Source: Hydrolagus colliei
Lineage: Eukaryota
NCBI GenBank assembly: GCA_035084275.1
Contig: CM068742.1
Location: 96,286,001 to 96,350,000, forward strand
DNA: 64,000 nucleotides
Direction of reading: 5' to 3'
The notes below the pieces were generated by a model. The model searched no databases. It was not told the origin of the DNA and was given only the letters and a program-made list of their open reading frames with translations. This document shows positions 31,716 through 62,955 of this stretch, piece after piece; within the stretch, counting starts at the first letter, position 1; each line of letters begins with the position of its first letter. The position numbers and the translations under genes are program-made.

Positions 31716-31746
<31 letters not shown>

Positions 31747-37700: not shown

Positions 37701-40700
37701 CGTGCTAAACAATGTAGATGTGGGAATGGATTCATATTCTGAAGTCTTTGTTCCAACACCTTTAGGGTTCATAACATATCTCTCCTGTAAACACTTGGGA
37801 ATTGCCTCGACGATGTGATAAGACGCTATATTAAATGCAAGCGTTATTATTGCTAGTATTATTACTATTATTTCTTCAGGAGTCGGCAAGGTGAAGTCCT
37901 GTGTGGGGCAGGATTTGCATGAATGTAGAAAGTGCAGAGCTTGTTGGGCCGAATGTTTTTTTTCACAGATTTCCACTCAGTCACTTCATTCACCTCCTGG
38001 TAAGTTCTGTATAGATACTCAATAAACCCCAAAAGATAATAGCCACCCTTTCCTACAATCTCCAAGACCCAAACACAGCCTTCTCACTTGAGGCAAGTCG
38101 ACCCACTTAGCTCAGGACATTGGAGTATTTGTTCATCTCTATCCGCACTTTTTGCTAAATCCTCCAATATCATTCCCAAGCAAATACTTGTTGAGCTCTT
38201 TTTTGTAGGAGGTAATCGACGCAGTATGGATTGCCTTAGTTGGGAATCTGCTCACGTACAGCATAACTCTCGGTTAAAAGCTTTTTTCAATTTAGAACTA
38301 CGGCTCACAGAGATGCGTTGTTCTAATCTCATTTATAACAGTTCCAGTTTATAATAATAATCTTTGCATTTGATATAGAGCCTGATCACGTCTTCGAAAC
38401 GTCTTACAGCACTTGACAGAATATTCTGTAAAGTGAATTTACTTTACATTTTGTGGGCAAAACGGGGCAGTCAATTGCGCATAGTTGTGGATTCAGTGAC
38501 CAAATTATTATTATTTTATTTTAGTATTTATTTATTTGAAGGGATTATTACCGCTGGAAAAGTGATCCACCAATTGACTACTGGGTTCCTACTTGCTGCT
38601 AGGTAAAAAGAGGCATGTGGAATAAGGGAGCTTGCCCAAAGTTTTACTCGGTTTGGAAATCAAAACCAGATCCTCTTGCTTGCGAGGCGAGTGCTCCAAC
38701 CACTGCACTACAGGACTCCAGTTTAGAGGTTCTCTCTTCTGTTGCTTCTATCACATAGCACTGGCAGAAGCACTCACAACCCTGCAGTTAGCTTCTACTA
38801 CTCATCACTCAAAAGTGAGGATTTTGTGGCTGTCCAGTGGTGCAATTTTTTTTGCAGTGCTCGGCAACTGATGCTATTTTGGATGGAATTCTGCTCCTCT
38901 TTAATCACAGCCAGAGAGCAATGCAGCAAAGAAATAGACTGAATTTGGCACAACACATTAGAGGTATCTGCAGACCACACTACATATTCTGTAATTCTCT
39001 GCCGTCGACCACAATTAGAAATGAACGCAGCGGTTTGCGAGCACACACTGCTAGGCAAAGTCTGATCCTTCCAACTCACAACCAGCTGCTAAAATGCAAT
39101 AAGAAGGTGTCAATGAAATAGCTCAGTGTGAGACAATAAGAGAACTCACAAAATGCTCCATGTTTTGGTTCTTTTGGGCATACTATGTGCAGTAACTGGT
39201 TTCAAGATAACAAAACAACCGTATTCTTTCATTGCGTCACAGGAGGAAAAAATGGTTCTGTCCCCCCGTTTTGCTGTTGGTATTCGCACAATGTGAAAAT
39301 TGGAGAACCGATAATGGCTAGAACACAATACTTTGAATGTAAATATGCCTCCATTAACAGATGATCATTCTGATCTGCCTTTCTGGGTATTTTCCCTGGT
39401 TTGCATGTGCATGTAACCAAGAGAATACAGTTAACAAATGTTGCCATCTGCATGTCATGTGAGATTTGTGTTTTCATTGTGAGTTGTGCTCTGGTTGTAT
39501 TTGATCTTCTTATTCCGTGTGCTTTCCTCAAGCAATCCAGAGACTGAAAACATCAGAGCAAGCCCAGAAGCGTTTGTAATCTGAGCCTTCATATGGTCGG
39601 GTAGTTAAAAAAACGTCAGCAAGAAGTATTACTAAAATCAAAAATAAACCAAAGGCAATTTTCAGAGTGATGTGGGCTCCCCCAGGCCACTGGAAGATCT
39701 TGCAGTGCTTCTGCAAAATCATCAGGTTTGATTCTGCGGTCTGTTTACAACACTTGAAAGGTATCAAAACATGAAAGAGTTTTGAATTTCACGATTCATT
39801 CAGTTTACAGGTGGGGGAATTGCAACTACTTTTACAGAGTAAAACGCTGGCAATCCGTAATGGAAAGAGGTTCAATATCACATGATGAGGCATCTCCATT
39901 GGGAGTCAGATCACCCGTCATTACAGTCTCACAATGAAAAAGGCTGGTCCAAGAGGGCATCATAAATAGGATGCTATCTTTCATATATGTGCACAAATGG
40001 TACGATGATTTGAGACCCATTCCAAATACACAAAAACTCTACAAAAGCTTTATTTTCTCGTGCAGCGCTACCGAAATAAAGATAGCGGCAGTGGGAGAGA
40101 AAGCTGTTTGATATTCAGGCATCTTGTGGCCTCCACTGGCTACATTTCAAAAGACGCAATTGGGAAACAAATTAAATTGCTAAAGGCTTTGTGCCTTTGT
40201 GGTGAATCTTAGATCTTCATGTCATCAGCATGATTTCACATATGAAAGCGGGGAAGGACAGTCAAATCAGTCTATCTGCTTCACCATTGCTGTCCTTACT
40301 GCAGAATCCAAAACATAAAAGTGATATAATTGAGGAATTCTACCCTCCCTATATTTGAGGATGCCACATCTTTCTCTCATTTGCTTTATCTACAAGTTAT
40401 GTTCAGCATTAAATAATTCCTCATGAGTGCAGCATTTGAAAACCCACCAAAAATGCACTAAAAATATCCATACGGGAAAACGGCACAATTGTTCTAAAGA
40501 TTTGGGGGAAAAAAAGGATGAGACCCGCAATGCAGAAAAGCTGGGATGCAAAACAAATTATTCAGGCCCAAGGCATCACTAGAAAGTAACCAGAGAAATC
40601 AGAAGCAATGAAGATCTGAGTGACTAAAGTTGCGGTTGTTCAGACAGACAGTACCTTGTTGTTGTCCAAAGGGTCTTTGTGTGCGAACGCCTGCACAAAT

Positions 40701-43700
40701 TCCTCAGGTCCAATATGACTGAGACGTTCCTGGAGAAATAAGCAAAATGTCAACAATGCGTTCTTAGTTTATATGCCTGCCCCCACACACACAGCTCCAT
40801 GGTATTCACATATATTAATAATCACAAAATGTCTACAATGGAATGTGCATCATCAATAGTTTTCACTTTTGTGGAGCCTTTCACCTAAAAAAAATCAACA
40901 ATGTTTGTATTTTATAGAGCACCTTATCATAAGGACTACTCAAAGCTCTCAGGATTTTACTGTCAAGTGATTGTGTGTTCTGTACATGAACCCGGCAGCC
41001 AATAGTTATGTCCTACAAACAGCAATGAAGTGAGTGATCAACTTTATCTGGGGGATTGTTGGCCAGGATACTGGGAGAAACTGTTCTATTTTTGAATAGA
41101 GCAATGGGATCTTTCACAGCCACCTAAACAAGCAGACAAGACCCCAGTACAACATCTCAACCAAACGGCGGCACCTCCGACAACGCAGGATACCACAACA
41201 CTGCACTGGACCACCTAGACTACAAAGTCTCAGTTTAAAATAGAATAAACTTCCCATAGCACTTTGTAGTGAAGAGCACCAAAGAAAGGTTAGGAGTAAT
41301 GATCAAAGCAAGTTTTCAATTTTCAAGAGGGTTTTTGAGGCAGGATGAAAGGAAGTGAGATTTTAGAAGAATTACCAGATGACATGAATGCAGTGGCTGA
41401 AGGCTCAGCCACTAAAGGTGGGGCATAGGGAGTGAGAAAGAAGCAATAACCCAGAATTGGAGGAGTGAAAAGTACAGACAGGAGAGCCCTGATGGAGGAG
41501 AATGCAGAGTAGGTCAGGGTAAGACAGTGAAAGATTTAAAGGTCAAGAACAAGGAACTTAAAGCTGTTCTGCCGAGGTACTGTAAGCCGAGGGAACCTCA
41601 CATGAATGCTAGGGAGACCAGTGAAGAGAGCATGGGAGAATTCCAATCTTCGGGTGTTGAAGAAATATCACTAAGATTAGGATGAAAAATGTGGTATTGT
41701 GGAGGTTCAGTGGGGTAAATTAGTGTCCCTGTGTTACAGTTGGAGTCTGACAAAGAGACAATTTGCTGATTTTCATGCTTATTGACATGCAAAAGTAGCA
41801 CAGTGCATTGTTATTGAAGCTATTGTACAACCTTATACCTTTACATCCACACAACCTCTAAAGAATCCTCACATCTCTCCATTCGCTGCAGTATATTTAA
41901 CACAACTTCCCAAGGTTAGATTGATAATGAAATCATTGAGAGAAACAGACTCAGTATGTGATCGGATTAAATTCAACATTCAAAGGAAGGTCCCATATTT
42001 AGCAAGAGGCTTGATAGACATCCAGCTGTGGAGAGCCCAAAAGCAATTAGGGTAACAGGGAGAGAATGAAAAGGAAGGAGTGAAGAAGTACAGAAATGTA
42101 AGGTAAGCAGCAAATTATAATCACTGATAAGATGTCAGGGATGAAAAGCAGGGAATAAAAATAAAATAAAAAATAAGATGTGGTGGAGGAAGCCACCATT
42201 TTTCTGTAGAAATAACCTGTGTTTTGGAAGTCTGAATTACATCAGAACTCAGCAACAACTGAAATTATGCATCTCCTGTTAACATAAAGATTATGACAAA
42301 AGTGAACCGCTTTTGTATCTGGTCCATGGTAAGGATTCTCATCACATGTGTACCGCAGGTGATAGCTTGTGCTGTTTCATGGGCCAATGCACCAAAAACA
42401 ACAGGTGAAACCAGCAACAGGAGGTTAACAACAACAACAAAATTACATTTAGAGAGAAAGATTTCCACCAAAAACAGCAGATCTTCAAAAGCATCTTCAC
42501 ACTAATCGATAGCACACAGATACCATATCATCCCACCTTGAACTGATATCTGGGATGGGGTTTTGTTTGCTTGTCCAAACATTTGCGCTGTCTCATTCGA
42601 CAACAATCTCCCCAGATCTAAGGGAGAAGATAGAACCAAACAGCTGTTCCTTATTGCCAGATCTCTTCTCCATGTTATAACTCTCTATCCCTTATAGCTT
42701 TTTTTAAAAAAAACAATTTCCGTTGAATGAAATCCTACATATACCAAGCAAGGCAATAGAATTCGATAAGAAGCACGGTAATAATGTGATAATTGGCCAC
42801 AAAGCATAGTCTATGTTATGAATAGTAATCTTAGTGCATTCCTTCAGTACTGCTGCAGGGCAAATATATAATCAAATTGAACGCACGGGATAAGTAGGCA
42901 GCTGAGACAGCAGTCTACTGGGGAACATCTGCATTGGGTTTAGGAAGTGATACTGAATCAAGAATCCTTGTATGTTCCTAGTTGCAGATTTACAAAATAC
43001 CTCTACCTTAACAAAGAGATGTTTTGAAGACGTGATAAAGTGCTATATCAAATGCAAGGATTATTATTATAATTATAAGAGAGCTCCATTACTTTGCAAT
43101 CCTGGCGTTACAGAGGCCAATGGAGTTAGTCAATGTGGCCCGTCCTGCCTTACTGTTTGCAGGAACTCTTCCAACCAATTATTAAACCAAGTTCTTGATG
43201 TAGCCCTTATAAAAGGTGTCAGTCTAGTTCAGCTGGCAGCATTCTCACCTCTGAGACAGGAGGTTGTGAGTTTCAAGTCCTATGTCAACACAATGTTGAA
43301 GGAACACTGCATTATTAGAGGTGTCTTCCTCCAGATGAAATATCTCAAATGCTTCACATGATTCATTGTAAGGTGTAGTGACTACTATCACCAATTTTGC
43401 TCATAACAATGTTCAATAAACAGACATGAAGTGAATGACTAATTTTATCTGGGGGGTTGTTAAGTCAATGACACTGTGACAAACATCCTTCTCTTTTCGA
43501 GGAGTGCCATGGGACCTTAAACATCTACCTGCACTGGCAGATCTCAAGTCTCATCTGAAGGGCAGCACCTCTGACAATACAACATTCCCCAAAGACCATT
43601 AGCTGAGACAATGAGTTGAAAGCCCCGACATGTTGTTCGGAGCTCCGACCTTCTGATTCAAACGATATCTTCATCCTAAAACATTAAACAGTCATTTTCA

Positions 43701-46700
43701 GCAAGTTTTTCCTACAAAAGCTTAGGAGATACTATAAAATCATCCTGCAAACACAAACCACATAAGAATAGGGAATAGAGGCTTTCACTAAAAATGAGTG
43801 AAAAACACCATCATAACCAAAGAAAAATAACAAAAAGAGGGGAAAAAGAAGCACCTAGATGCACTCTGGTACATTGTAAGATATTATAGTAATAATGCAT
43901 AAAACACTCACTAGTTCTATATGAGTTAGCTGCTGGGCCAAAGTATAAGGATCATTGCAGATGGTCACTACATCCCTCTGAATAGACTGGGGTTTGGTCT
44001 TTAGGACGGTCAATCTATCAGTGACGGATGCATTTAATTTTGACAGAACTTCTTCATACTGGTTAAGGGTGGTGAGCTTCCGGATCAGACTCTGAGTCAT
44101 CTGGTGCATAGTTTTCCGATGCAACTGTAAGAAAAGAAAACAAATATATTGGTAAAAATATCTTGTGATCAAGCTAATCACTCGGTGAATGTGTCCTGTA
44201 TATATTCTAAAGTGACCAGTACTTTATAACTCCAGGAGGTCAGGATATTGAATCCGGCTACAACAACAACAACAATTTCATTTATATAGCCCCTTTCACG
44301 TCAGGAGGACATCTCTACATGAAACATACTGATAAATGCAGGCTTTGTAGCATTGGCAACAATGTAGCCTGGGTACACAAGATGAGATATCTTACACTGT
44401 GGAGGCTGAAACAAAATACAAGCCTGGTTAAAAAATCTCTAAAATAGAGCAATCATCAGGTCCAATAACCTGCACCAAATGCAGGATTTCTAAATGGATG
44501 AATTAACAAGAAATCAAAGGACCCCAACTAAAGATTCCCTCTGAAAACTGGACTAACACCCTACTAACCTACAGTCACAGTTATCAGCAGGAATTGTAAT
44601 GTGAAAGTTTGTCCTAGCCGTTGGAAGACGTCCCAAGGCATTGCAGTTTTGGCACCTTGGAACGTAATCCTGACGTGGAAAGCACCATGCAAATACACTT
44701 TGTTTTTGTTGTTGTTGAGTACCCATAAAACTGGACTATTCCAAATTTGTCAATGCCATATGCTAGAGCTAATAAGGATGTATGTAGACATCTTGTGTTA
44801 CAAAAAATATTGTGTTGTTGAATACAATTTATGTTTATATAGCACATTTCATGTCGGGAGGATATCTCCAAGTGCTTCACATGGCAAAATTTCCGAGAGC
44901 AGTATGCATTTTCTGATATTAAGAAGTTACGAGTTTCGAACAAATGAGCAGCAGTATCCTAGTCATCAGCTCAAACACAAGAAAGGTCATGGTTATTAAG
45001 GTGTAAGAATCTGTTATCACACTAATGTTCTTAAGGGTACTGTTAAAATCCATTTGAAATGCTACCCTGTTATTTTTGGATTCCTTTCCTTTCTGTGAGG
45101 CAATCTAATGCTGCATTGTGAATGCCTAGCCATCTGCTTGCAACAGTGGGCCAGCTAAGAAGTAACAAAGCTCTTTGCATCCTACGGAGAGCGGGTTAGA
45201 ATAATCATCTCCACCAGGGACAGAACCTTTATAACAGCATGTGATCTACCACTGTACTGCTATGCTAGTTCACTTCAGTTAGTCTCTATCACTTGGCTTG
45301 TACTACAAATGGAACCATCCAGTCCAACTTTTTTTTAAATCAAACTAAACTACAATTGACTGTGCATGTATAAAAGCCAATGTAATAATAATAATCCTTG
45401 CATTTGATATAGTGTCTTATCACGTCTTCTAGATGTCTCAATGCGCTTCACAGAATATACTGCAAAGCAAATTGATTGTATATTTTATGTGGGCGAAATG
45501 GGGCAGTAGTGTCTCACACAGTCATGGATCGATTATTTTTTTTATGGAAAGAATTATTACAGCAATCTGCTTATCGACTAACAACCAAGTTCCTGCTTAT
45601 TGCTAGGCAAACAGGTGTGTGGAGCAAGGAAACTTGCCCAATGTTTCACAGGTCTCTCGCTTGTGAGCAAGTGCTATAAACACTGAACTCGTGAAATAAT
45701 GTAACAGGAATTTTCTCACTCACCTAAGACTTTAGGGACATGTAAATCTTGACAATGATGAGTATAGACAATGCAACATGGGACTGACTGCCTGTAATAA
45801 CCAGCGTAATCCATTGCTTTCAAAAGGAATCATAGATTTGTTTACTTTGGCTTAATAGCTAGCCTCAGCTTCAATGCGTCACTTTCATAATAACAGTGGG
45901 ATAAAATAACAGGGCTACAAACAACTGTGTAAAAATACCAACTGGGTAAACAGATGTGTGCTTCTATTTCTGGTTTATTTTCCAAGTCACCATTTGCAGC
46001 TGAAAGAGGTCAACATAGATAAAAGTCTGTGCTGCGTTAGTTATAACAAGACAAGCTCCCAGGGAAACAAAGGCCATTGTTCACAACGTGCTCACTACAC
46101 AGCGAGCGAGTTACTGTTGTTGACAGATCAATGAAAGGGTCAGGATCCAGTTGGCTTTCACCATTCAGTGCTGCTCTGTTCAGTATGAAAGAAACCACTT
46201 GGAGGAGAATATAATTTAGTTAAAACACTGGATAAAATGACAAGATACAAATCCAACCTGACCCAAAGTTTGATAACATCATATGTGGTTAGTCAACAAC
46301 AACAAAATTACATTTGTATAGCACCTTTCATGTCAGTAGGGCTTCCCAAGTCAGCAGATTAATGTTGTAGGGCTTCCTAAGTCAGCAGATTCAACAATGC
46401 AGCCCTTGGGTCTCAAGTACTGAAATGTTATAAATAGCCTCAATATTGGAACAGATTTTATTGTGCACCATTCATCTCAGTATTATTTATGAAAAAAGTC
46501 CAGAACTACAAATTTGTTCAGAATAAACAACTAATTACAGTCATGTTATCGACCTATTTTTAAGTTCTATGCATTTCATAACCATAAAATAACTCTTTGT
46601 TGCTATCTTTGTTTTCTTCATATCTTTGCTGCAGTTACCCTCCCATGCTGGTACTGTATATAGTTCCACAGGCAATACAGTTCCCTGTACCTGGCCCAAA

Positions 46701-49700
46701 GGGCAATTTTGCCCACAAATATACAGTCAATTCACTTTACAATATATTCCCTGAAGCACTTTGAGACCTCGATAAGATGTGAAAAGCGCTATATCAAATG
46801 CAAGGATTAATATTATTATTTCTTCATGTATAAGCCTGGACCAGCAATACTAAAAATGACTTGTTTGGGGTTTATCTCAAGCAGTCACATCTACCTCGGA
46901 TAGGGTTGGAAAGTAAAATATGCTAGATATTGTGACTTGTCTTAATATTTTATTGAACTGTATGAATTACACTTACAATAATTCTAATAAAAACCCTTGC
47001 AGTGAAGGAAGACATCTAAAAGTGCCTCAAGAAATTTACTACAGTGACTGTGATTTTGTAAACCAACACAAGTGAATTAAAATAGCTTAAGAAATGCAGG
47101 ATTTTTGTGCATATCTTAAGGGGGATGGACCTATAGGAATAAACTTCAAATTAATTTAATATCTGAATGTGTCCAAATTTGTTCCACTTAAGTTCATATT
47201 TGGAAGGCACAAAGCTGGTCAAGGTGCGGGCATGTGCAACTTAATGTATTTTGGGATTCTAGCTGTGAAGATTGAAAAATGCTAAAGGAATCTGAAATTG
47301 AAAATATAAATGAATCTGAATGCAGAATGGAATTCACCTAAAAAGTCCTCACTTTTAATCTCCAGAATCCTCATTTCCAAAAGCCTTTGTACCATGAAAA
47401 TATATGGATTGTGTCTTTTTTTCTGAGAACAATTTCTCTTTTAACTTAGTAGAACTGAATTCCTAATAAATAATTGATGTCGACATACATTTAATTGATC
47501 AGTGTTTATCTTAATGATTAATAATAACAAACAGTGCCAACGTGAGCCTAGTCTATCATTAACCTCAAGGTTAAAATGTGTGTCTGGGAATGATAATTAT
47601 CGGCTGAAATTAGTTTTGCTGTGTTTCATTATGAGACGACTGTAGCCTCCAGCACATGTGGACACAATTTCTATTGCCTTGGGGGGAGATCAGATGCCTC
47701 TATAAATATAAAGATATAAGGATATACAGTATGTGATCTCCTCAAACCCTACTGTCCCAGCCGCTCCCTTTGCTCAGTGAGCACAGGCCTGCTTCATGAT
47801 CCCACTCTTCTTGCCACACCATCTTGCTGCCCCACTCTCTGGAAATCTCAGTTTCATCTTAACACCTATCTGTTTACCCATGCTTTTGGTTATTTGTCTC
47901 CTCCCCACTCTCTCTTCTCCCATCCCCAGCTCAGCTAGCTAGTACTCTCAAGTGCTTTGGGATGTCCTCTTGACGTGAAAGGCATTATATAAATGTAAAT
48001 TTATAACATATTGGAAAATCACCATAGGTACATGAATCCATGCAGATCAGTTATAATGGAAATGAAGGACTCAGGCTGGCAGTGGAAGCTCTTATAAGTT
48101 TCTGCAGCTTCAGAGGAATGTCTTGCATTAATCTGTGTCTATCATTGAAGAATAAGCCTCAAAGATTTTGCTTTGTTACTCATCTTTGCATCGGGCTTTA
48201 AAAAACAGTTGTACCCTTTCGATCTCATTTGCAGAACTCAAAATGTAAGTTTGATGTGAAAAATAATAATAAGCATTATTTTTCTTGATGAAGTCAGAAA
48301 AAAACTAAGTATGAGCACATCTTCCCTTTTCCATATTCAGTTCACTTGCTTGAGTGAGAGATTTTCCCTCCCACTTCTCCCCTTCTTCTCCTCTCAAGTA
48401 AACAATGCAAAATCACCATTAGTTATCACTTTACCATTCAAACAATGTTTGCAAAACAAACTAACCTCATCCAAAGTCGCTATTTTGTGGGTCATGTCCT
48501 TTAGATTTCTCATCATCCTTTCATCCCGAAAATCATAGGGGAATGTTTCAGTCCATTCAATCAACAGCTGCACTATTTTTGGTGTAAATTTTCTTATTTT
48601 GCCCTGCAAACAGACATTAGATTGCATGTAATTATAGTACTTATGGTGATGATAGATCGAAACGCAGGATGTAACAACATTTATTTTATCTCAAGGACAA
48701 CATTGGCATAGCGTAATTGTTAGGCTTGACACACTGTTAGGTACTTAACAACCCTTCTTTCATTAAAAATTAAGCCAAAAAATTGCTTTTAGCATATAAA
48801 TGGAAATCTCATTGCATTAATTATGAGAAATAAAACCTAAAAAATTATTGATGTTTGCAGTCAGCAGTCTCCAACAAACAGAAGGCCTCGCTCGATAATC
48901 TCACCTTATCTAAAAGTGCCTCATTCAGTCTCTGTTGTTCAATACACATTAGGCAAATCTTCGCCAAGAGCTCATAAGGCCGAATGAAGAGACGGGAACT
49001 AAGCAAAAAGGTAAATATATACGTTCTCTGGGGGAGAAAGGTAAAGAGAAGTTAGTAAACACAAGAAATCACACTTTGAAGTACTTTTAAGTACCATCAA
49101 TGGCCAGTTATTCTAATTTAAATTTAAAGGGTTAGCTTATTCTGGTCACTAAAAATAGCGGGCTGTTCACTATTTTTAGCATTCTGCGTAAATTAAACTT
49201 GAATGATTCAGTGAGGATTACGATGAATAATCTTAAAGGAAAGAAATATAAATTATAAATGGAATTACCGTACTTGTTCAGAACACACCATTTTTTTGGT
49301 CTTTTATGTGTGCAACTCTTGTTTCAACTATATTGTGGATAAAGTTTGCATTGCTTCATACAATTGGAAACAGATTATGAAACATGATAATTGACACTAG
49401 GAATGTGCACTGAAGTCTCCAAAAAATTATCCCATATCTTTTTCCTTCTGCACATGCTTTCCACTCTCCCCAGTGGCAGTGTGTGTAGCTAATCCACTTC
49501 CAGGACCTCAATGAATCTAACTAATTGTGTACTAGAACCCAATCTTGCACCTCTTTACATTGTTACAGCAAAAACTGTAAGATCAAGTGATAGTTTAAAA
49601 CCCATTTAAGGGATTAAATGAACAAAAAAGTATAAATTGCACTTTTCCCAAGTCTTATCTGCAGCTTCTTTTATTTCTTATTCTACACATTTTGAACATA

Positions 49701-50805
49701 ATCAACTCTTTTGAAAAAAAAGGAATATGAAGGGTATGGTAAGTGAACATGTGTTAAATTACAACATTCATATGGGGGGAAAAAAAGCATCGGAAAAAAA
49801 GTGCAGGATTGGTAGATAAGTGGCCTGTTTCTGTACTACAAAATTCCATGATGCAATGAAAATGGCTCTTGAATGATCTGGTACAATCCCGGTGCAATCC
49901 CCATCAAGTATGTTTTTCCACCAGGATGCACCACTGATAATCATCCAATGCTGTATAACACAGCTTTGGAACTCTACTCTTGAACACTTCAGTTCTACTT
50001 GTTATGCCTTGGGTTTCTCCTCAGAGTATACAACCATGCTCTGTAAACAAATGACATTTCTATGGGCATCTGCCATAATTACATTTCTGGTTTAAACTTT
50101 GCTTTTCATTTACTCAGTCTGTGCTATGGTTGATAGTTCATCTTCTAACGCTTTCTCTCAACAAAATTTGGGTGTTCCTCATTAAAACTGTTCTCCCTCC
50201 TGGGTTGCTCCTTCCCAATATCAGTGTCACTGTTCACTCATTATCCCATTTTACTGGACTTCCCTTCCCACAATGTAGGACTGCCTAATGCAACTAGCAA
50301 ACTGTTCTGGGCACTGTGTTGTCTGTATGGTGTGTATCTGTATGGTGCTTATATCAGTGTCAGGAGCCATATTATCTTTGGTGAATTGTGGTTCCAAAAT
50401 GACTTTGGAAATTAATTTTCCTACATTAATGTAGGAAATAACCTAGCTATGCTAGCGAGAGAGGAGAAGGGAACAGAATTGAGTAGCATGATGGCTCATA
50501 TGAAGTACAAACACGAACATGGACTAGTTGGTCCAAATCGTATGTTTCCGTGCAGTGCAGTATATGTAAAATCTATATAAGAACTGTGTCTGATACAAAA
50601 CATGGAAACTCAGCTGAGTCAAACGTACATCAGGGTAGTAGTCAATTGTAGGCACAAGGTGCTGGATTAGCGCCTCCAGTGATCCCGAAACAAGGTTGTT
50701 CTCATGGTAAAACAGGCCCCCGCAGTTGTCCTCTTTCAATAAGTACAGGTGCCGATTGTAACCTCGACTGTTGAACATAGTTGCAAAGGTTCTTGTTTGT
50801 GGCAT
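19340..50805 (-). CDS. RASGEF1B: RasGEF domain family member 1B, spliced CDS span (13 coding exons, 1419 nt, 472 aa; N-terminal REM domain plus CDC25-type RasGEF domain)
   Basis: Exons read manually join in frame with GT-AG boundaries: [21 protein letters not shown]...[13 protein letters not shown]...[21 protein letters not shown]...[13 protein letters not shown]...[14 protein letters not shown]...[25 protein letters not shown]...[19 protein letters not shown]...[32 protein letters not shown]. From recall, the N- and C-termini fit 1B better than 1A or 1C. Confidence 0.95.
20500..20572 (-). CDS. RASGEF1B: RASGEF1B coding exon 12, (A)[23 protein letters not shown](R)
   Basis: ttttcctcag acceptor, AG|gtagat donor; 73 nt. 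Confidence 0.95.
20885..21585. mobile_element. Tigger/pogo-type non-autonomous element with a long internal inverted repeat
   Basis: TA|CAGTAGAAGCTCATTTAT ... ATAAATGGGCTTTTACTG|TA; transposase-like N-terminus [20 protein letters not shown]. Confidence 0.88.
22071..22690 (-). mobile_element. L2 3' fragment
   Basis: [20 protein letters not shown]...GGRAFS in ORF 22191..22565; (CAA)n tail on the + strand. Confidence 0.9.
24266..24389 (-). CDS. RASGEF1B: RASGEF1B coding exon 11, [41 protein letters not shown]
   Basis: ttccttcag acceptor, G|gtaagt donor; 124 nt. Confidence 0.95.
24962..25246 (-). mobile_element. tRNA-SINE
   Basis: Reverse complement of the family consensus. Confidence 0.9.
25955..26050 (-). 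CDS. RASGEF1B: RASGEF1B coding exon 10, [32 protein letters not shown]
   Basis: tttggacag acceptor, GAG|gtgagt donor; 96 nt. Confidence 0.95.
26165..26620 (-). mobile_element. Old L2 3' fragment
   Basis: CAA tail, tail stem-loop remnant and degenerate purine-rich ORF2 antisense sequence. Confidence 0.6.
28231..28326 (-). CDS. RASGEF1B: RASGEF1B coding exon 9, [32 protein letters not shown]
   Basis: ttttatgtag acceptor, AAG|gtaagt donor; 96 nt. Confidence 0.95.
28691..29222 (-). mobile_element. Nested SINEs: a young copy (28782-29092) inside an older copy
   Basis: Order is tail / full SINE / body. Confidence 0.9.
29515..29594 (-). CDS. RASGEF1B: RASGEF1B coding exon 8, (S)[26 protein letters not shown]
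   Basis: ctttttcag acceptor, GAG|gtaggc donor; 80 nt. Confidence 0.95.
30200..31180 (-). mobile_element. L2 3' fragment (second tail subfamily) covering the RT YxDD motif to the 3' end
   Basis: MYVDDTQLY region, [24 protein letters not shown]; tail at 30200-30254. Confidence 0.9.
31719..31780. repeat. (TA)n microsatellite with two GA interruptions
   Basis: Read directly. Confidence 0.95.
31930..32765 (+). mobile_element. L2 3' fragment
   Basis: ORF 31930..32835: LNKDKT, NLGIRFD, AAETLV, WIDFKIL, GRAFS; tail at about 32705-32765. Confidence 0.9.
33175..33720 (-). mobile_element. Degenerate L2 3' fragment
   Basis: [11 protein letters not shown]; gggagccagtgaag (LHWLP antisense); tail at 33175-33220. 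Confidence 0.75.
34664..34766 (-). CDS. RASGEF1B: RASGEF1B coding exon 7, [34 protein letters not shown]
   Basis: cactcacag acceptor, T|gtgagt donor; 103 nt, ends in phase 1. Confidence 0.95.
34922..35017 (-). CDS. RASGEF1B: RASGEF1B coding exon 6, [32 protein letters not shown]
   Basis: cgttacag acceptor, ATG|gtgagt donor; 96 nt. Confidence 0.95.
36884..37670. mobile_element. Complete non-autonomous hAT element (MITE)
   Basis: TIRs TAGGGTCCG(G/T)CGATAT; perfect 8-bp TSD GTGGAGGG at 36876-36883 and 37671-37678; subterminal CGATAT/ATATCG arrays; G-rich minisatellite core. Confidence 0.95.
38350..38718 (-). mobile_element. tRNA-SINE, long subfamily
   Basis: Head ends ...ctacaggactc; extra ctgggttcctacttgctgctaggtaa segment present. 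Confidence 0.88.
40655..40729 (-). CDS. RASGEF1B: RASGEF1B coding exon 5, [25 protein letters not shown]
   Basis: tttctccag acceptor, AAG|gtactg donor; 75 nt. Confidence 0.95.
41270..41750 (-). mobile_element. Old L2 fragment
   Basis: Degenerate antisense of the L2 C-terminus (gtggctgaaggctcagccac, gatttaaaggtcaag). Confidence 0.55.
43912..44124 (-). CDS. RASGEF1B: RASGEF1B coding exon 4, LHRKTMHQ...LTHIEL
   Basis: ttcttacag acceptor, CTA|gtgagt donor; 213 nt; lies in ORF 43855..44181. Confidence 0.95.
45384..45690 (-). mobile_element. tRNA-SINE, long subfamily
   Basis: Tail, body and degenerate head present. Confidence 0.85.
48466..48603 (-). CDS. RASGEF1B: RASGEF1B coding exon 3, GKIRKFTPK...ATLDE
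   Basis: tttgcag acceptor, GAG|gttag donor; 138 nt; lies in ORF 48394..48627. Confidence 0.95.
48905..49027 (-). CDS. RASGEF1B: RASGEF1B coding exon 2, [41 protein letters not shown]
   Basis: ctttctcccccag acceptor, AAG|gtgag donor; 123 nt; too short to appear in the ORF track. Confidence 0.95.
50629..50805 (-). CDS. RASGEF1B: RASGEF1B coding exon 1 (gene exon 2; the exon extends to 50811 with a 6-nt UTR, GAAAGC), MPQT...DYYPD
   Basis: tttaaacag|GAAAGC ATG at 50811/50805; donor GAT|gtacgt at 50629; 177 nt. Confidence 0.95.
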
Positions 50806-53800
50806 GCTTTCCTGTTTAAAATAAAATACAAGACATATATAGGGATTATTGGCATAAAAATCAACAGGTAAACTTTTTTGATTTTCATCGAATAAATACC
50901 AACAGTTCTTTTTTTTCATATTTATAACCATTTTTATATCAAAACAATGTTCACAATTTGAGGTCACAAAACAAATAAATTGACAATTGGTGCAGTCACC
51001 CGGACCTCTTCTGCTGCACAATAGAAATATCTTTCAGTGTCCAGTTGGTAAGCCATTCTCACCACAGGGGTGAATTTTTAAGAGCCAATTCCCTCAGTAC
51101 TCACCTTGACGTTACCAACACTCATTTCTAAGGTTCCAGACTCATTTGAATTCAATTGTTTTCATCAATTCTCAGCCTTCCCACATGGTTAAAAAAAAAT
51201 GGATTTTTTGCACTGAAAATGTATTTGTTTTGCATTAAAATCTGAGTAAATTTATGCACATGCTGGATTTGTAAGATGCTCACAACTGGGTATACCTGAA
51301 ATAGTCATATCAGTTAGTCACACTTCTCCTAACAAAATAAGGCTTGCTTCCCATTTAAATCTACCAAACAGCTTAGCCCTGAAGTGATTGGTTCTAGTAG
51401 CATCAGCCCAAGCCTCAAGCTGCACAAAGAGAACTGGAGTTGCTGACATGTTAATGTGATTCCACAGATGCACAGAGCCCATGGCTATGGTGTTACACAC
51501 TTCCTGACGACCCAGTGACCCATACTCCATGCACAAGTTAAAACTTGAAAAGAGTCTTTACCCAATCGACTTCTACCTCAATATTGTTAACAACAACAGA
51601 ATTATATAGTTAACCTCAATATTGTTAACAACAACAGAATTATATTTATCGAGTGCATTTCAAGTCAGGAGGATGTCCCAAGGCGTTAATGGAGCTGGGT
51701 GTGATTATTAAGCAGCTTCACTCTTGGCATCCTCCACAAATTCTACTACCGTTGTTCAGCATTAAGGGAAGCCTTTTCCTTAAAGTCCAATGATTGGTAT
51801 TTTGTCCTCTGCCATAACATATCAGGATCTAAAATGCAATATTCCTATTAAGTCCAGGTTGGTCCAATTGGCAGCCCGTGGCCACTTCCGACTCAGGGGA
51901 TAATTTGATGTAGCCCATGAACCATTTCCAACTTTATCACCCGGCAGCATTTCTCTTCCTGTCGGCCCCTTCACTGCCTCATATGAGTGTGGAGAGTGAA
52001 GGGAATTAGGGTGGAACAGGAGGTTTGACTGGTACCTCCTGTTTGGCCCCACTTCTCTGTCATTCTCTACGCTGGCTCATGCCTCATACAACCTCATAAC
52101 AGGCAGCGTGGAGGTTGACAGGAAGAGATGCAGCAGGAGTATTTTAAAAAGGTATTGTTGTTTGTTTTGCAATGTTGCTTCTGTGGGCTATAGATGTTTC
52201 TCAATCCCACTTCCGGCCCTCAGCAGCCAAAAGGTTGGACCATCCTGGAATTTAATTAATTGCAACTTGTGGTTTGTGAATATTGGATTGTGAGGTTTGT
52301 GTGTGTTTCTCAAAAAAGCGATATGCACATTCCGAGATGGCAAAATCTGATTTTAAAAAAAGCTAGCTGGCAAAATGGCAAGGATTACTACAATCAGAAA
52401 GGTTGATACTGTCTCACAATTGCACAGTTATTTTTCTTTAAAAAAGCTCACTGTGTGTAGGAAAGTGCTATGTCACAAACACCTCTGTCTTAGCTGGTCA
52501 CCAAATAAAACAGCACTTCCTTCTAGCAATCCCTGAGGCACAGTCTTGAGATTTCAGCAAGCATGTGATACTTCATCAGACAGAGCAAGGGTTTCAGGGG
52601 GTATATTATTATTTACTTGTTAATCAACTTCAGTGAACACACTGCTTGTTTTTCCCTACGCTATGTTTTTACAAAAAATTCCACTGTTGAACCAAATTAT
52701 GTTAATGACTACACTTGCATTCATACAAATATCACCGACAACAACAACAACTTCGATTTATATAGCGCCTCCACGCCGGACGGCATCTCAGAGCGCTTTA
52801 AACAATAAGTGTTTACCTCAACTAGTTGTTCAATAGGCTTTTCTACCTTGCATTGTGTATATGAAATATCAGATAGGTTCGTTGGGAGATTGTACTGTCT
52901 TCTGCGTCTTGCAGACTGGCTGAACAATGGTTACATTCATGAAAACACCAGACAGGTGTGTAGAAGTAACCAATAATAATAGATTACAGCCCTACCGAGA
53001 GCTCGAAAGAGAAATTAGAGAAGTGGCTTAAATCTTCTACAAATCCCAATTGTTACCTTAATCAGATTTAGAAAGAAGAAAAATGTTTACACTTTTACAT
53101 GACCTTATTACCTCAAATTGTAGTGAATGCATTTTGTGGACAAAACAAGGTTGCTGCTATATGCATCAGCAAGATCCGAAAAATAGCCATGAGGTGAATG
53201 ACCAAAATACGGAAGGATTGCTGATCATAAATTCGCTTCACTTAATAAACAGTCATGGGATCTCTATCGTTCACCTGAAGAGCAGCAGATAGGACTGTAA
53301 TGAAAAGTCTTCCGTAAAAAACAGCACCTTTGACAATGCAATGCTTCAATATTACACTGAAACTTCAGCCCAAATAGACTGAATGCACAACTTAGAGATT
53401 GAACTCACAATATTCTGATGCAGAGGCGAGTGTTCTACAAATTGTTCTTTGTAGCAAACAGACCTAGAGTCTACCAACAGTAAATAACAACTCAGCCTGA
53501 CACCACACAGCATCCAAACAGATTGATGGTGCAATACAAAGATTCAAAGACACACCGATTTGAAAATTTAAACTAAAATTAGGCAAAGAAATTATCGTTG
53601 TCATATTTCAATTAGCAGATCTGATACTGTGCTTGAAATAAATGTTGTTTCCTAAATGGATCAAAAAGAGACTAATGCATAAAAATAGGAATTCATCATA
53701 ACAAGTACTCTCAATTTCAGCAAAGTTGGTTTAGACTCTATGACAATGACGTTGATGAATTTAACCAATAACAATCAACCAATATGGACACTAACTTGCA

Positions 53801-56800
53801 TACATTAGATTTTAATAAACACAAGTGGAATGATATGTACTGGGATTGCCAACATCAAAGGTATCACCATCCGCCATTTCAGAGCTTCCCAAGATATTGG
53901 ATCAGTTTTTTGCAGAAGTCGATGGATGAAAATCAAACAGTTACTCTAAAAAATGTCAAAAAGGAAAAACCTGCTTGCAAAGTATGCATCAAAAGCTGTA
54001 ATAAACATTTCCTAATTAAGTGTAATGTGTCCCAGATCAATCTACACATAGATAAAGAACACAGTTGCACATAAATTTATAAGATTATTAAATTCACTAA
54101 GCTCCCATTTTGAATGAATTGAATCAATAACTATTGAAAAATAGGTGATTGGTGCAGCTTTACTGATTCTGACAACACATTCCTTCAACCATTTGTAGCA
54201 CTTTCCAATTGCAAACCTTTCTGAGATACCTTTTGATACTTCAGAAGAGCACCGTAAGGAAGTACAGTACTTACATTTTTATAGCAGGTATATTGCTGAA
54301 ACATCTCAAAGTCTTCCATAACAATTACTGTCGCGTATAGTAACTTTTTTTTAGACAAAATTGGCTCATGAGATCACTTTACCGCTCACTTAATTAACCT
54401 GATCTGGAGATGTTGTATATCTCTGGTGATAGCAAAGCTAACTGCTTAACCTGTTTGACATTATACTCAAACTGTAAGACTGAAAGTCACTTCTTTTGGT
54501 CTCCAGAGTCTCTTCAAGATGGTTTTTGTTGACATATTAATTCCAGGTCAATACATCAAAATAATTTTTACTCAAATTGTTACCTTCCCTCTATCCCATT
54601 TCCATGGATCCTGCACCTGTGACCCCATTGTTCTCCAGAGGAGAATACTTAATAGGTTCAAGAGAGGACAATGCTGATCTATAAATCAACAGCTATTTGA
54701 CATTTATCTGTCAAAAGACAATTACAGAAAAAACGCCTTGCATTTATATAGTGCTTTACACCTAGGATGAATGTCTCCAGGTGATTCACAGGGGCAACAA
54801 GGAGCACCAAGCAGGGAAGAGACAAAGAAGAATTTATGTGTGCTACACATGATCAGAGAGGAGTAAGGCAAAGCGATTTGTGAAGAGTTCCAAACAGTGG
54901 GGCGATAGCGACTGAAGCCTCAGCCACTGAAAGTGGAACAAAGAGTGTGAGGAGTACACAGTGAAATCCAGGCAAGGAAATAAGAGGTGACCTAGCCTCC
55001 CAAAATCTAAGAGTTCCATTGCTGTTAAGTATTCCTACACCATATATAAAAACCTCGGAAAAAACACACTCGGCAGATACAAGGCAAGAATGTGAATGTG
55101 TTGCACCAACTATTTAAAGCTGATTTATTCTGGAAGCTGGAGGAATTGTTGTGCAATTTATTCTAGAAATAAGCTTTGTACAATGGGTCTGTCTCATTTA
55201 CAAAGAATGTCTGCCCAAGAAAACAATGAAAGGATCAATATGCAAGCACATATTTTGGGCAGACATCAATAGACAAACTCAAATGCTGTGATTATGTTCC
55301 TCAGGAATATTGAGACCTGGGGGAAATTATAATAATGATGATATAGTGTGCCAGTGCACTGTCAGCAGTAAAACGGTTCCTGAATACACATCTACCAGAG
55401 TGATTATTGTGTCTGTTTTGTAAACAGGCAGCATCACTGCTACACACTTTAAAATCTATAACAAGTTTACCCCACAATGAAATCTCAAGAATAAATGAGA
55501 CTGTGTAGCACTAAACATCCAAATCTATAAACAATATTCACTACCTTAAGTGGTATGTCTCAATTGTCTCCAGGATTTGTGAACAGGCAAACAAGTCTTA
55601 TTTAATTAACAAAATCTAATCTATTTTGCAGTGGTACATCATTGCATATAGCAAATTAACATGCTTTTTGGAACCAAAATAAATCCAATAGAGAATGAGC
55701 TTACCCTATCGGTATTCATAGACATGATCAATTCAACATCAATCTGTCATGCCAACCTTACAGATACCATCAGGGAGCAGCAAACCAAAGACTCTCTCTC
55801 TCACACACACACAAAACAAAATTACAGTTGTATAGTGCCTTTCACATCGGGATGACATCCGAATGCGCAAGGCACACATCAATCGAAGGCTTTTAAAATG
55901 ATCAGAGATGCAAAGACCAAGAATATGATGTTATGAATTACTGATGGCATTAGAGCAATAACTTATTTTGATAATAGGATTTTTTTTCTCATTTATGCCA
56001 TTTCACTTTGTTGTTATATTGTACTTATTGCTTGAAAGCTGGTAAAACTCCATTGTTTGGATCAATATAAAAGCTTGCTAATTTATGACTCTAAAAGCGC
56101 TCTGAGACGCCGTCCAGCTTGGAGGGCGCTATATGAATCAAAGTTGTTGTTGTTGTAAAAGTAATTATTTGCTGTCCCTGTTACTGGTGTGTAATGTTTA
56201 TTTCCATGTCTCACTTCACTGAATATTCACCCTGCCCAAGTACCTGGCAAACATATATATGTGCTTATACATTATGATGGGCTACAAGAAAGAGAAAAAA
56301 CACTTCTCAGTGACTCAATGGTCAGTCACAAAGATAACAAATAATATTGCTTCATTTCACACAAGATGTGGACTTTTTCAGAAAATGTTAAGATTCTGTT
56401 GTGCTACATTACCACATTAACAACTTGCACCTATACAGGACCTTTCACATATGATAAATTTCTCAATATCATACAGATATGAATGGGAGCACGGAGCCGG
56501 AAAAATCCAGGATATTGGCAAAATGATCAGTAAAAGAGATTTGTTTTTCAATGGGTTTTGAAGGCAGAGTGAGGAAGCAAAGTGGAGAGATCTTGGAAAT
56601 TGGAATGAAAAAATATTTTTTTCGAATAAACTTCTCAAAGAATTTCTGTCAAAAAATCCTTCAGAGATTCAATTAAAATCAGACTGGATTTTTGTTTTCG
56701 ATTATCCTGATGCTAGAAATAGTAATGAAAAAAGCCTCTACCTCACTTTATGTCCAATGTTTAAGCTATGAGGTACACATTGACGTCTGAAGTGTTCAGT

Positions 56801-56982
56801 GTTCTTACCATGTGGTCTCCAGTTCATTGGGTAGCACGCAGCACTTTCACCTAAGGTCAGAAGGTGGTGAGTTGAAGCCCCAACTAAGGTCAAATAGTTC
56901 AGTGTAGTACAATAAGACATTTTAAAAAAAACTGTCCTTTAGTGGATGTTAAAGATCCAATGATATAATTTGGAAAGATAAA

Positions 56983-57302
56983 GGAGTCCTGTAACTCATT
57001 GTTTACAGCACTCGCCTGGCAAGCGAGAGGCCTGGGTTCAATTCCACACGCCTGATAATAATCCTTGAAAAAAAAATTGGTCATTACAATCCATGACTGT
57101 ATGTGGGACAACAGCTGTGAACAATTGGTTGCCACGTCTTGCCCACAAATTCACTTTACAGCATATTCTGTGAAGCGTTTTGAGATGTCCAGAATATAAT
57201 CCTTTGATGCAGCACTTTTCACATATTCTGGACATCTCAAAACACTTCACAGAATATGTGAAAAGTGCTGTATCAAAGGATTATTGTAGTATTATTATTA
57301 TT
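56983..57302 (+). mobile_element. tRNA-SINE with a rearranged (palindromic) tail
   Basis: Head gagtcctgtaactca; see the finding on this tail. Confidence 0.9.
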
Positions 57303-58184
57303 ATTGTTCTCCTCTATGTCCTGGATAAAAATCCTTTCCATTAATGGCTGTATTTGGTCATTCACATGGCAAGAGGATTTGGGCCTCCCGCTGACACAAA
57401 TGCTTGCCATGTTTACCTATAAAAAAATCAAAAACACTTGACGCTGATTACTTGTGAATCTTTGGAACCTTTCTACATAATAGGCTGATTTAAAAATATT
57501 CCCTCTCTCTAGGTACAGACACTTTCTTGATTTGATTTTAAGGCTGACCAGTCTTTTCTGGCACTCAGATCTGCATCAGCATACTTCACCAGTGTTGCTA
57601 ATGCCAGAGAATACAAATAGCAGGTAGAATGCAACAGATCAGGTAACCTCCCCAAACCAACAGCTGTGCAAGAAAGTTGATACCACTGTACTGTAACGCA
57701 GCACCTGTTGTGGGCACGCTATCCACAAGTAGATATGTTTGGTTCCACTCATGCAGATGATCAAAACCGCACCAACTCCACATCAGTGACAATGGTGTAA
57801 GAATGTGTCATAGAAATAGGAGGAAGCCATCTAGTCCATGACGCTGACCCAGCTTCTATGATTTTATTAGATCATTGAGGCTCATAATATTTTTAACCCA
57901 CTTTCCCCTTCTTGTCCGCCTTCTGTCTCATTTAAGGAATGTTGCATTAAATAGAGCAAAAAAATATTATAAAATTGGGAAATAACACTAATTTAATCAA
58001 GAAAAGGGAGGAAATAAAAGTATATTGGGATATCATAAGCTTTGTAACCAAACAAAAGCTACCTACAAGTTATGTGATTCAGTAGCATGCCTATTCTTAC
58101 CTACAATATAATGAAATACAAGGGCATTGCTTATCACAAATTGGCTGGATCATTTACCTACAAAATACAGTCACTGCAGTAAAT

Positions 58185-58479
58185 GATGATCCTTGCATTT
58201 GATAAAATGCTTTTCATGTCTTCTAGACATCTCAAACTGTTTCATAGAATGTACAGTAAAGTAAAAGTATATTTGTGCGTGAAACACGGCAGCCAATTGC
58301 GCACAGCGGGGTCCCTCAAACAGTCGTGGATTGAGCGACCAAATTATTATTGTTTTTATTTTATGTTTATTATTAGGCATGTGGAGGAAGGAAACTTGCC
58401 CAAGGTTTCGCCTTGCTGGGTATTGAAACCAGGTCTCTCGCTTGCGAGTCAAGTGCTCTAACCACTGAGCTACAGGACT
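58185..58479 (-). mobile_element. tRNA-SINE
   Basis: Full-length reverse copy. Confidence 0.92.
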
Positions 58480-58739
58480 CCATGAGTGAAGACTAAATCC
58501 TGTGAAATGCTGTGAGATGTTCTCCCGATGTGAAAGGCGCTCAATCAAAAGTAAGGATTATTGGTAGCAGTATATTTACTGATAGCCTGTAGTGTAGAAG
58601 GTACAATTGGCAATTTATTAACTTGGGAGGCTGTGACCATTGCATCAGGAAACATTTTCAACTTTCAAATACCGAAGACATTTATTTTGATCGAGAAGTA
58701 CTGTACCGAGTATAGTTGAACTAGCTGAGTGAAATTACC

Positions 58740-58956
58740 TTACTCTGGAATTCCATCCCAGAATGCTTACGCCTTGCCCCTTCCCTAGCCTCCTTTACAT
58801 CCCGTCTCTAGTCCCTCATCTTCAACCATGCCATTGGTCACCACCCTTTCCACCCCCCACCCCCAACCTGACCCCAGCTTGAGTCCGAAACACTGACTGT
58901 CCAGCGCCTTGAGACGTCCTCCCAACGTGAAAGGTGCTATACAAATGTAATTTGGT
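58740..58956 (+). mobile_element. L2 3' end (similar short 3' ends at about 47770-48000 + and 54730-54980 -)
   Basis: ctctggaattccatccc...gcgccttgagacgtcctcccaacgtgaaagg...(TTG)n. Confidence 0.85.
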
Positions 58957-59127
58957 TCTTGTTGTTGTTGTTGTTGAATGGAGATTTTATACAGACATAG
59001 ACTTTAAGGGCTGGTCATCACAATAGTAACTGCCACTGAATGCCTTGGATGTGTGTGCTGCTATTTTATAATAGTTTCAGCACCTTGAGAAATTATCCGC
59101 AAGTGAAAGAAGCTACATATAGGCATG

Positions 59128-59805
59128 GTCCTGTAGCTTAGTGGTTAGAGCACTAGCCTTGCAAGCAAGAGACCTGGGTTTGATTCCCAGCAGTGCAAAA
59201 CGTTGGGAAAGTTTCCGTATTCCACAAGCCTTGTTTATCCAGCAGTAAGTAGGAACCCAATTGTTAGTCGATTGATGGATCGCTTTTCCAGACGTAATAA
59301 TAATTCCTTAAAAAAAATATAACTTGGGTCACTCAATCCATGACTGTTTGTGGGACACTGCTGTGTACAATTGGCTGTCGTGTTTGCCCACAAAATACAG
59401 TCAATTCACTCTCCTGTGGCTCAGTGGTTAGAGAACTTGTCTTGCAAGCTAGGGAGACCAAGCTGGGGAGACCTGTGTTCAAATCCAGGCAGATTAGGTC
59501 GAAACCTTGGGCAAGTTTCCTTACTCCACACACCCAATAATAATCCTTCCAAAAAACCACAATAATAAAATTGGTCATTTCAATCCACGACTGTTTGTGG
59601 GAAACTGCTGTGCGCAATTGGCTGCCGCAATTCACCCACAAATATACAGTCACTTCACTTTACAGTATATTCTGTGAAGCGCTTTGGGACGTCGATAAGA
59701 TGTGAAAAGCGCTATATCAAATGCAAGGATTATTATTATTATTGTATATTGTGTGCAATACTTGAAGATATGATAAGGTGCTATATCAAATGCAAGGATT
59801 ATTAT
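59128..59805 (+). mobile_element. Nested SINEs: a young short copy (59411-59742) inside a long-subfamily copy
   Basis: The host body stops at cagtcaattcact and its tail resumes after 59742. Confidence 0.9.
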
Positions 59806-60039
59806 AAATGTTAATTTGTATTGTATTGCATGGTCTAAATACAGCTACTACTTGGTCCCTAAATACGAGAGATGGTGATAAAATGGAATGAAAGCTGAGT
59901 GGCCATGTTAACTGGGCTACAACTCCATTAGAGGTCTTTTGATGATCCGTAAAGTGCAGACACAAAGCTTGTGCAGCATCTGTGAGATAATAGATGAGTG
60001 AACTGCATCCCTGACACACTCCTACCAGCCTTTTATATT

Positions 60040-60357
60040 ATAGTAATCCTTGCATTTAATATAGCGCTTTTCACATTTTATCAACGATCCCAAAGCGCTT
60101 CACAGAATATACTGTAAAGTGAATTGACTGTATATATTTGTGGGCGAATCGCGGCAGCCAATTGCGCACAGCTGTGTCCCACACACAGTCGTGGATTGAA
60201 ATGACCAATTTTATTATTGTGGTTTTTTTGGAGGGATTATTATTAGGCGTGTGGAGTAAGGAAACTCGCCCAAGGTTTCGCCCTGACCTGCCTGGATTTG
60301 AACACAGGTCTCCCCAGCTTGCAAGACAAGTGCTCTAACCACTGAGCCACAGGAGCT
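60040..60357 (-). mobile_element. Young tRNA-SINE, nearly identical to 28782-29092
   Basis: Shares the diagnostic ctggggagacctgtgttc head and gtatatatttgtgggcgaatcgcgg. Confidence 0.93.
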
Positions 60358-60679
60358 CCATATGAGATGTTACACAGAGATCCATTTTTCTTTCACTCGT
60401 GATCCTGAGAATCCACATTTGCCCGGAGTTTGAATAAAAATTTTCATCAGAGCTGATAATTTGGTTGTTTTAGTTTGTACCTCATGTCAATATTTCAGCT
60501 CAACAGTTTAGTGCAATCAGAAGGTTCCAGAATATTCTTTCCACTATTCTGCCTTATGCATTATGGTTTAACGTACTCCAGGTTCATATACCAATTGCAA
60601 GTGCTGTCTTTTGAATTAGTCATTAAACTGGGGCCATTTTTGAGTCATTAAACTGACTGTTCAGGTGGATATTAGATAA

Positions 60680-60982
60680 TAATACTAATCCTTGCATTTG
60701 ATATAGCATTTTTAACGTCTTCTAGATGTTTCAAAGTGCTTCATGGAATATACTGTAAAGTGAATTGAATGTATATTTGTGGGTGAAACCCGGCAGCCAA
60801 TTGTTCACAGCAGTGTCCCACAAACAGACGTCAATTGAAATGACTGATTTATTATTGCGTTTTTTTTTAAGGGATTATTATTAGAGGTGTGGAGTAAGAA
60901 AACTTGCCCATGGTTTCACCCTGCCTGGAATTGAACCCAGATCTCTCACTTATAAAGCAAGTGCTCTAATTACTGAGCTACA
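60680..60982 (-). mobile_element. tRNA-SINE abutting a truncated hAT MITE
   Basis: The head lacks its first ~6 nt at the junction. Confidence 0.9.
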
Positions 60983-62393: not shown

Positions 62394-62421
62394 GTGTGTG
62401 TATATATATATATATATATAT
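62394..62421. repeat. (GT)n(AT)n microsatellite
   Basis: Read directly. Confidence 0.9.
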
Positions 62422-62865: not shown

Positions 62866-62905
62866 ACACACACACACACACACCAGAGAGAGAGAGAGAG
62901 AGAGA
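62866..62905. repeat. (CA)n(GA)n compound microsatellite next to the putative exon 1 donor
   Basis: Read directly. Confidence 0.95.
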
Positions 62906-62955
62906 AACAAGAGAGAGGAAAAGGGGAGCGAGCAGGCATTACACACGAACATTAC

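Follow-up and report, generated by a model that had tools for sequence, protein, structure and literature searches.

The stretch of DNA analysed here, hereafter the window, comprises 64,000 nucleotides (nt) of Hydrolagus colliei (assembly GCA_035084275.1, contig CM068742.1, positions 96,286,001 to 96,350,000) and contains 12 coding exons (exons 2 to 13) of RASGEF1B, three of which, exons 2 to 4, are considered below as the source of a circular RNA (circRNA). The identity of this host gene was indicated by matches of exon 2 to 58 of 61 candidate proteins, the named ones labelled RasGEF1B and the others unnamed or hypothetical, with a best identity of 83% to shark and ray 1B proteins and identities of 75–80% to most tetrapod matches. 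All 12 exons were mapped with a shark orthologue and gave a stop-free read-through. The features that bear on the circle were as follows (SINE, short interspersed nuclear element).

50629..50811, minus strand: exon 2, 183 nt (6-nt leader plus 59 codons), with the acceptor shared by all back-splices; single copy in the assembly.
48905..49027, minus strand: exon 3, 123 nt, phase 0 at both ends; both adjoining introns are spliced out in contigs of a relative.
48466..48603, minus strand: exon 4, 138 nt, phase 0 at both ends; its donor is back-spliced onto exon 2 (444-nt circle).
43912..44124, minus strand: exon 5, 213 nt, whose donor likewise connects to the acceptor of exon 2.
40655..40729, minus strand: exon 6, 75 nt, with the third donor found on the acceptor of exon 2.
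50812..62955, minus strand: short-isoform intron 1, 12,144 nt.
44125..48465, minus strand: intron 4, 4,341 nt, containing two incomplete SINE copies.
62956..63100, minus strand: proximal non-coding first exon, with its donor at 62956 and a provisional 5' limit; a loose end in run X1 (see below) matches its last letters.

Exons 2, 3 and 4 were each bounded by an AG acceptor and a GT donor, each in phase 0, and their lengths (183 + 123 + 138) sum to 444 nt. Introns within this cluster measured 1,601 and 301 nt and those flanking it 12,144 and 4,341 nt. The coordinates and splice sites agree with a sequence-only reading of the window, which had described three exons totalling 444 nt, the last of them ending in phase 0, in a stop-free circular frame, and the measured introns agree with its compact 2.3-kb cluster between introns of about 12 and 4.3 kb. 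Between the exon 2 acceptor and the ATG were six nt, i.e., two sense codons, and the 444-nt circle had no stop in the ATG frame as opposed to 13 and 14 stops in the remaining two sense frames and 6–7 in the antisense ones. Among 186 homologous proteins, the span from Met to the end of exon 4 was 146 residues in 139, while 100 started at the exon 2 Met, and the circle thus contains the annotated start codon.

Junctions were sought in the contig sets of five runs (X1 to X5) of a relative, organism A, presumed to be RNA. Six runs of nine were matched with the window, i.e., these five and X7 of organism C, while X6, X8 and X9 were left out; the raw reads of X7 gave five partial reads that were unlike the stretch. 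Of the window's words, 5% were present in the organism A contig sets. Exons in these contigs were approximately 96–97% alike to those of the window and one intron piece was 87% alike, which identifies organism A as a close relative and not as the species of the window. A second comparison (X5, X3 and X2) was performed at 92% likeness, with 31 letters on both sides of a joint as the rule. Contigs of organism A spanned the exons with both internal introns removed, and a joint from 50810 to 48465, described as going back 2346 with 3 ambiguous letters, corresponded to donor 48466 on acceptor 50811. Canonical splice sites were thus used, with a downstream donor joined to an upstream acceptor. This joint was noted in all three runs of the second comparison and in three of the five organism A runs overall, at depths, relative to the exon body, of 78.1/327.3 in X5, 10.2/20.9 in X2 and 25.6/25.6 in X3. 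Thus, the donor and acceptor from which a circle of exactly 444 nt had been predicted were found joined when RNA was searched for the back-splice, as the sequence-only reading had proposed, and the circle is beyond chance: its back-splice joint stands in RNA contigs of a relative.

In run X3, the sole record at the locus was a contig of 474 nt (444 plus an overlap of 30) with no linear entry or exit, which is suggestive of a closed loop as rendered by an assembly of this kind. Neither X2 nor X3 gave a listed linear junction into exon 2; contigs show presence and not absence, and an enriched library is a possible cause. Circles may be the main fate of exons 2 to 4 in some tissues or libraries. 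Exon 2 itself was single-copy in the genome assembly of the window's species. A 295-nt piece of intron 2 (49293-49587), with no further copy in the window, was also represented in contigs of X4 and X5 at approximately 87% identity, and may be a repeat shared with other transcripts or a segment that is either retained or cryptic.

Joints and loose ends clustered at 50811-50813, and exon 4 was not the only partner of the exon 2 acceptor. Thus, 27 letters of a loose end at this acceptor in X5 (depth 80) equalled the end of exon 5 letter for letter, and 28 letters of a loose end in X5 and X2 (depth 5.1 in X2) equalled the end of exon 6. A two-read consensus in X4 at the same acceptor, compared by hand, was consistent with first-exon sequence mixed with the end of exon 6. 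In X5, the exon 5 junction contig was as deep as that of exon 4 (80 versus 78). Sister circles of 657 nt (exons 2 to 5) and 732 nt (exons 2 to 6) are predicted from these junctions, and all three junctions seen yield stop-free frames. The sequence-only reading, while correct for the exon 2 to 4 circle, had missed both sister circles as well as the long isoform described below.

A stop-free frame is not beyond chance for this gene. All junctions from exon 2 to exon 7 were in phase 0, and stop-free circles were obtained for 9 of the 12 starting at exon 2 and for 46 of the 78 possible exon circles of the gene. The six nt ahead of the ATG, previously described as an untranslated region (UTR) in frame and free of stops, have both of these properties but are UTR only in the short isoform, as indicated by an in-frame stop in the proximal first exon 18 codons ahead of its end; in a long isoform the same six bases are codons. 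Exon A of the long isoform was located at C1:96498853-96498785 (outside the window), 162 kb upstream of exon 2, with a phase-0 donor and, over 23 residues, 91% identity to turtle and 96% to eel N-termini. Exon C (54 nt, phase 0) was located at C1:96412537-96412484, also outside the window and 75.7 kb upstream of exon 2, to which it was joined in frame in X5 contigs (depth 11.8). Among the 186 homologues, turtle, eel, catfish, tetra and horse models carried an N-terminal extension that ran in frame into two residues and then Met, and in shark to mammalian homologues alike the conserved Met followed two sense codons, leader lengths beyond this genome and organism A being taken from protein models. 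A 5-nt leader in passerine birds, to which GK or K before Met had pointed, was rejected, as the homologous upstream models keep the frame with GK in place of ER (P0095 compared with P0017, P0094 and P0099).

The 23 residues of exon A, seen in horse and catfish as well, were better conserved than exon 2 and are hydrophobic with one cysteine; as a guess from this composition, the segment might be membrane-targeting. The upstream exons of the long isoform gave no Pfam match at the cut-off, a middle upstream exon was not found by a search that gave one match, and tblastn of the N-terminal extensions against the window gave weak matches only (best E = 0.003, in a repeat-like region). Among the papers listed in a search for the long isoform, none mentioned the gene.

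The same layout was evident in a paralogue on contig C15, probably RASGEF1A, whose leader likewise measures 6 nt and whose phase-0 exons are 180, 132 and 138 nt long.

L005 483-662, 2267-2398 and 6595-6732 (C15): paralogue exons; the would-be exon 2 to 4 circle is 450 nt.

Because the paralogue shares both the leader and the phase-0 exons, the exon layout would predate the gene duplication. The endless frame follows from the phase-0 junctions of exons 2 to 7 together with leader bases that are codons of a conserved longer isoform, and thus does not need a circle to explain it. The conserved upstream coding exon removes the main reason to think that the frame of the circle is under selection, and the absence of stops is likely incidental to the way the exons are laid out, not an indication of protein.

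With regard to what brings the splice sites together, SINEs of one family were present in introns 1 and 4 in both orientations, at the places given in the sequence-only reading, whereas its proposal that they promote this back-splice was not supported. A reference copy had 34 matches in the window, 19 of them on the plus strand, and one copy has a tRNA-like A/B-box head at 63805. The intron 4 copies (approximately 45383-45647 and 46708-46820) are in opposite orientation to each other; in intron 1 the first copies lie about 6 kb away from the acceptor of exon 2, and the best partners of the intron 1 copies are one another. A genuine circle that owes its formation to pairing of inverted SINEs in introns 1 and 4, and would then be lineage-specific splicing noise and not inherited, appears unlikely. 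Sixteen inverted matches (1122 bits) do join these introns, the best of them (108 nt, 89%, 141 bits) ranking fourth among 66 intron pairs, but direct matches were as many (19; 1173 bits), the best inverted match lay 9.9 kb and the nearest, a weak one, 5.0 kb from the acceptor, and pairing of intron 1 with itself was far stronger (433 bits). Thus, the inverted pairs, at least 5 kb from the acceptor, were neither proximal, nor above direct matches, nor above pairs within intron 1.

The observed junctions did not follow the pairing scores either. The score for introns 1 and 5 was 62 bits only, yet the exon 5 junction was as deep as that of exon 4 in X5, whereas introns 1 and 9 gave the highest score (471 bits) and no exon 9 junction was listed in the organism A contigs. 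No splice-site-proximal duplex above shuffles was found in 300 nt on each side for nine donors with 40 shuffles each (z = +1.4 for exon 4, none below -1.5). A further point against SINE pairing is that the copies were mapped in the window's species while the junctions came from organism A. Counts of ACTAAY, a QKI-type motif, in the four 1-kb flanks (1, 2, 1 and 0 copies versus 0.44 per kb in the window) were uninformative. The strongest inverted match able to bracket the exon 2 to 6 circle was a non-SINE repeat of introns 6 and 1 (36900-37700 and 61134-61614; 440 nt, 78%, 324 bits), the intron 6 copy of which includes a low-complexity tract rich in C.

The circle has counterparts in other vertebrates. 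Mouse circRasGEF1B reportedly consists of exons 2 to 4; the mouse and human circle was reportedly described by Ng et al. in 2016 and that of miiuy croaker by Chu et al. in 2021. circRasGEF1B has been found in mouse macrophages (PMC5612941) and is described as conserved with human (PMC5723916), as a ZFP36/Bcl-2 scaffold in mouse (PMC8026322) and as a miR-21-3p/MITA sponge in miiuy croaker, where a title calls the circle highly conserved (review PMC9941745); the passages of PMC6376182, PMC5748671 and PMC8242174 that were consulted gave nothing on its exons or translation. The host gene is the same in all cases. The numbering of the mouse circle in PMC8026322 reaches nt 444, in keeping with the length found here and with the 146-residue coding span of most homologues. 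Differences are that the present circle is from a cartilaginous fish and is accompanied by sister circles, and that lipopolysaccharide induction and ICAM-1 and ZFP36/Bcl-2 roles are described for mouse. No paper on a RasGEF1B circRNA in cartilaginous fish was found in the literature search, and the main text of a bamboo-shark circRNA paper (PMC7759564) had no mention of RasGEF.

Taken together, these results make it probable that exons 2 to 4 form a 444-nt stop-free circle, likely the circRasGEF1B orthologue of cartilaginous fish, which likely arises from an acceptor behind a very long intron and is likely a non-coding RNA. In such a process, the short internal introns (1.6 and 0.3 kb) would be quickly removed while the exon 2 acceptor would stay free, its upstream partner being 12 kb away in the short isoform or 76–162 kb away in the long isoform, so that the donor of exon 4, 5 or 6 could then attack it. 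A delayed acceptor of this kind fits better than one specific RNA duplex because one acceptor takes three donors. Because each back-splice would take the start-codon exon from a pre-mRNA, circle formation would come at the expense of RasGEF1B protein, and would leave a stable circle able to serve as a scaffold or sponge, as has been reported for mouse and croaker.

One acceptor, three donors and a 12–76-kb intron would also fit the delayed acceptor of start-codon circles, or AUG circRNAs, which Stagsted et al. 2019 (PMC6487579) describe as abundant and conserved, with long flanking introns, distal repeats and no sign of translation. By this analogy the present circle is probably a long-intron AUG circRNA, orthologous to circRasGEF1B and non-coding. 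It resembles that class in that it contains the start codon, lies behind a long intron (12.1 or 75.7 kb), has distal inverted repeats only (nearest match at 5.0 kb compared with a 2.3-kb cut-off), is conserved and shows an apparently high circle-to-linear ratio. In the terms of that paper, the circle would be 'ambiguous', because a longer isoform starts upstream, and would belong to the 8% with an infinite open reading frame (ORF), a frame that was not analysed there.

Several points weigh against a circle of this type in the window's species. The junction comes from organism A, and the three positive runs belong to one study whose RNA status is presumed and whose library type is unrecorded. 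Only X3 showed the joint with 31 letters on both sides (26 in X5, 27 in X2), the first comparison gave no joint even for X5, such that the listing depends on settings, no back-splice was noted in X1 (low depth), and in X4 a contig read straight through the exon 4 to exon 5 junction, unbroken and unbranched. Contig depth is a poor measure of expression, and in contigs a linear exon repeat, trans-splicing or template switching would look the same as a circle. As regards the AUG circRNA class, intron 4 (4.3 kb) is below the 6.5-kb cut-off for long flanking introns given in PMC6487579. Since infinite ORFs (8%) were left out of that paper's conservation and ribosome-profiling (Ribo-seq) frame analyses, the negative result on translation does not directly cover the present circle.

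Some of these points apply to the possibility that the junction is not from a circle and instead reflects tandem exon duplication in organism A, trans-splicing or template switching by reverse transcriptase. Short-read contigs do not distinguish these options, all positive runs share one study, and no DNA run of organism A was among the runs listed. An origin of this kind is nonetheless quite improbable, given that three different donors were joined to one acceptor, each exactly at its GT/AG site, that the X3 record closes on itself without linear entry or exit, that exon 2 is single-copy in the genome of the window's species, and that the same circle is reported for mouse and croaker.

If the circle is real, it could in principle be translated by the rolling-circle route from its native ATG into concatemers of the REM region, with dominant-negative or scaffold activity as possible consequences. 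The circle is divisible by 3, stop-free and provided with an in-frame AUG; one translated round would be 148 residues. As stated in the sequence-only reading, it represents the REM region without the catalytic domain, i.e., it holds the whole Pfam REM motif (residues 38–135 of the shark orthologue) and none of the catalytic domain (208–402). A rolling-circle product is thus coherent on paper, and further points in its favour are the stop-free frames of all three observed junctions (exons 4, 5 and 6 to exon 2), the two sense codons before the conserved Met from sharks to mammals, the rarity of infinite ORFs among AUG circRNAs (8% in human and mouse, PMC6487579) and the precedents of circEGFR and circNFIB (review PMC11724312). 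The latter (249 nt for circEGFR) are alike in having a stop-free frame that gives repeats of one host-protein domain, and differ in that mass-spectrometry, reporter or polysome support is described for them whereas the frame here is explained without a circle. The leader frame is accounted for by an upstream coding exon spliced to exon 2, the phase-0 junctions are an ancestral layout common to the paralogue, and the literature search, judged by title, found no report of a circRasGEF1B protein product or of RasGEF1B with rolling-circle translation or polysomes. The stop-free frame is therefore not supported as a hint of rolling-circle translation, which had been its significance in the sequence-only reading, and translation of the circle into REM concatemers would be very unlikely. 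More improbable still is the wider proposal that nested circles (exons 2–4, 2–5 and 2–6), kept since the origin of jawed vertebrates, are translated in this way into REM polymers as a circRNA-encoded brake on the gene's own exchange factor.

To our knowledge, few individual circRNAs have been followed outside mammals. Should the junction be confirmed, circRasGEF1B would be common to mammals, a teleost and a cartilaginous fish and would date to the jawed-vertebrate ancestor. The earlier suggestion of a gnathostome-ancient circRNA is accordingly likely as far as the RNA is concerned, the junction being present in contigs of a relative, and is not supported as far as the frame was taken to hint at concatemers. 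Flanking SINEs are Alu and B1 in primates and rodents. An old jawed-vertebrate circle would have outlived such lineage differences, and this would point to long introns, more than to repeat pairing, as the cause that has been conserved. As RNA, the sequence-only prediction was largely borne out, with a deep-branching circRasGEF1B and two predicted sister circles, while SINE-driven circularisation and a rolling-circle protein were not supported. The locus also shows that conservation of an endless frame cannot be taken as evidence of translation, since a coding exon far away suffices to account for it. It offers a clean natural test case for rolling-circle translation because a major survey with a negative outcome did not include such frames.

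Other observations concerned linear isoforms, neighbouring genes and intronic repeats. A Met-to-exon-4 span of 105 residues was noted in 6 of the 186 homologues, and proteins P0110, P0112, P0119, P0124, P0026 and similar were approximately 41 residues short or without exon 2; these short orthologue models suggest linear isoforms lacking exon 3 or exon 2. In one bird and one catfish (P0011 and P0132), gene models fuse RASGEF1B with cGMP-dependent kinase 2, which suggests a conserved PRKG2 neighbourhood. Finally, fragments were noted on both sides of exon-free DNA in intron 8 (window positions 30100-33800), and their translations resemble sequence of the reverse-transcriptase region of long interspersed nuclear elements.

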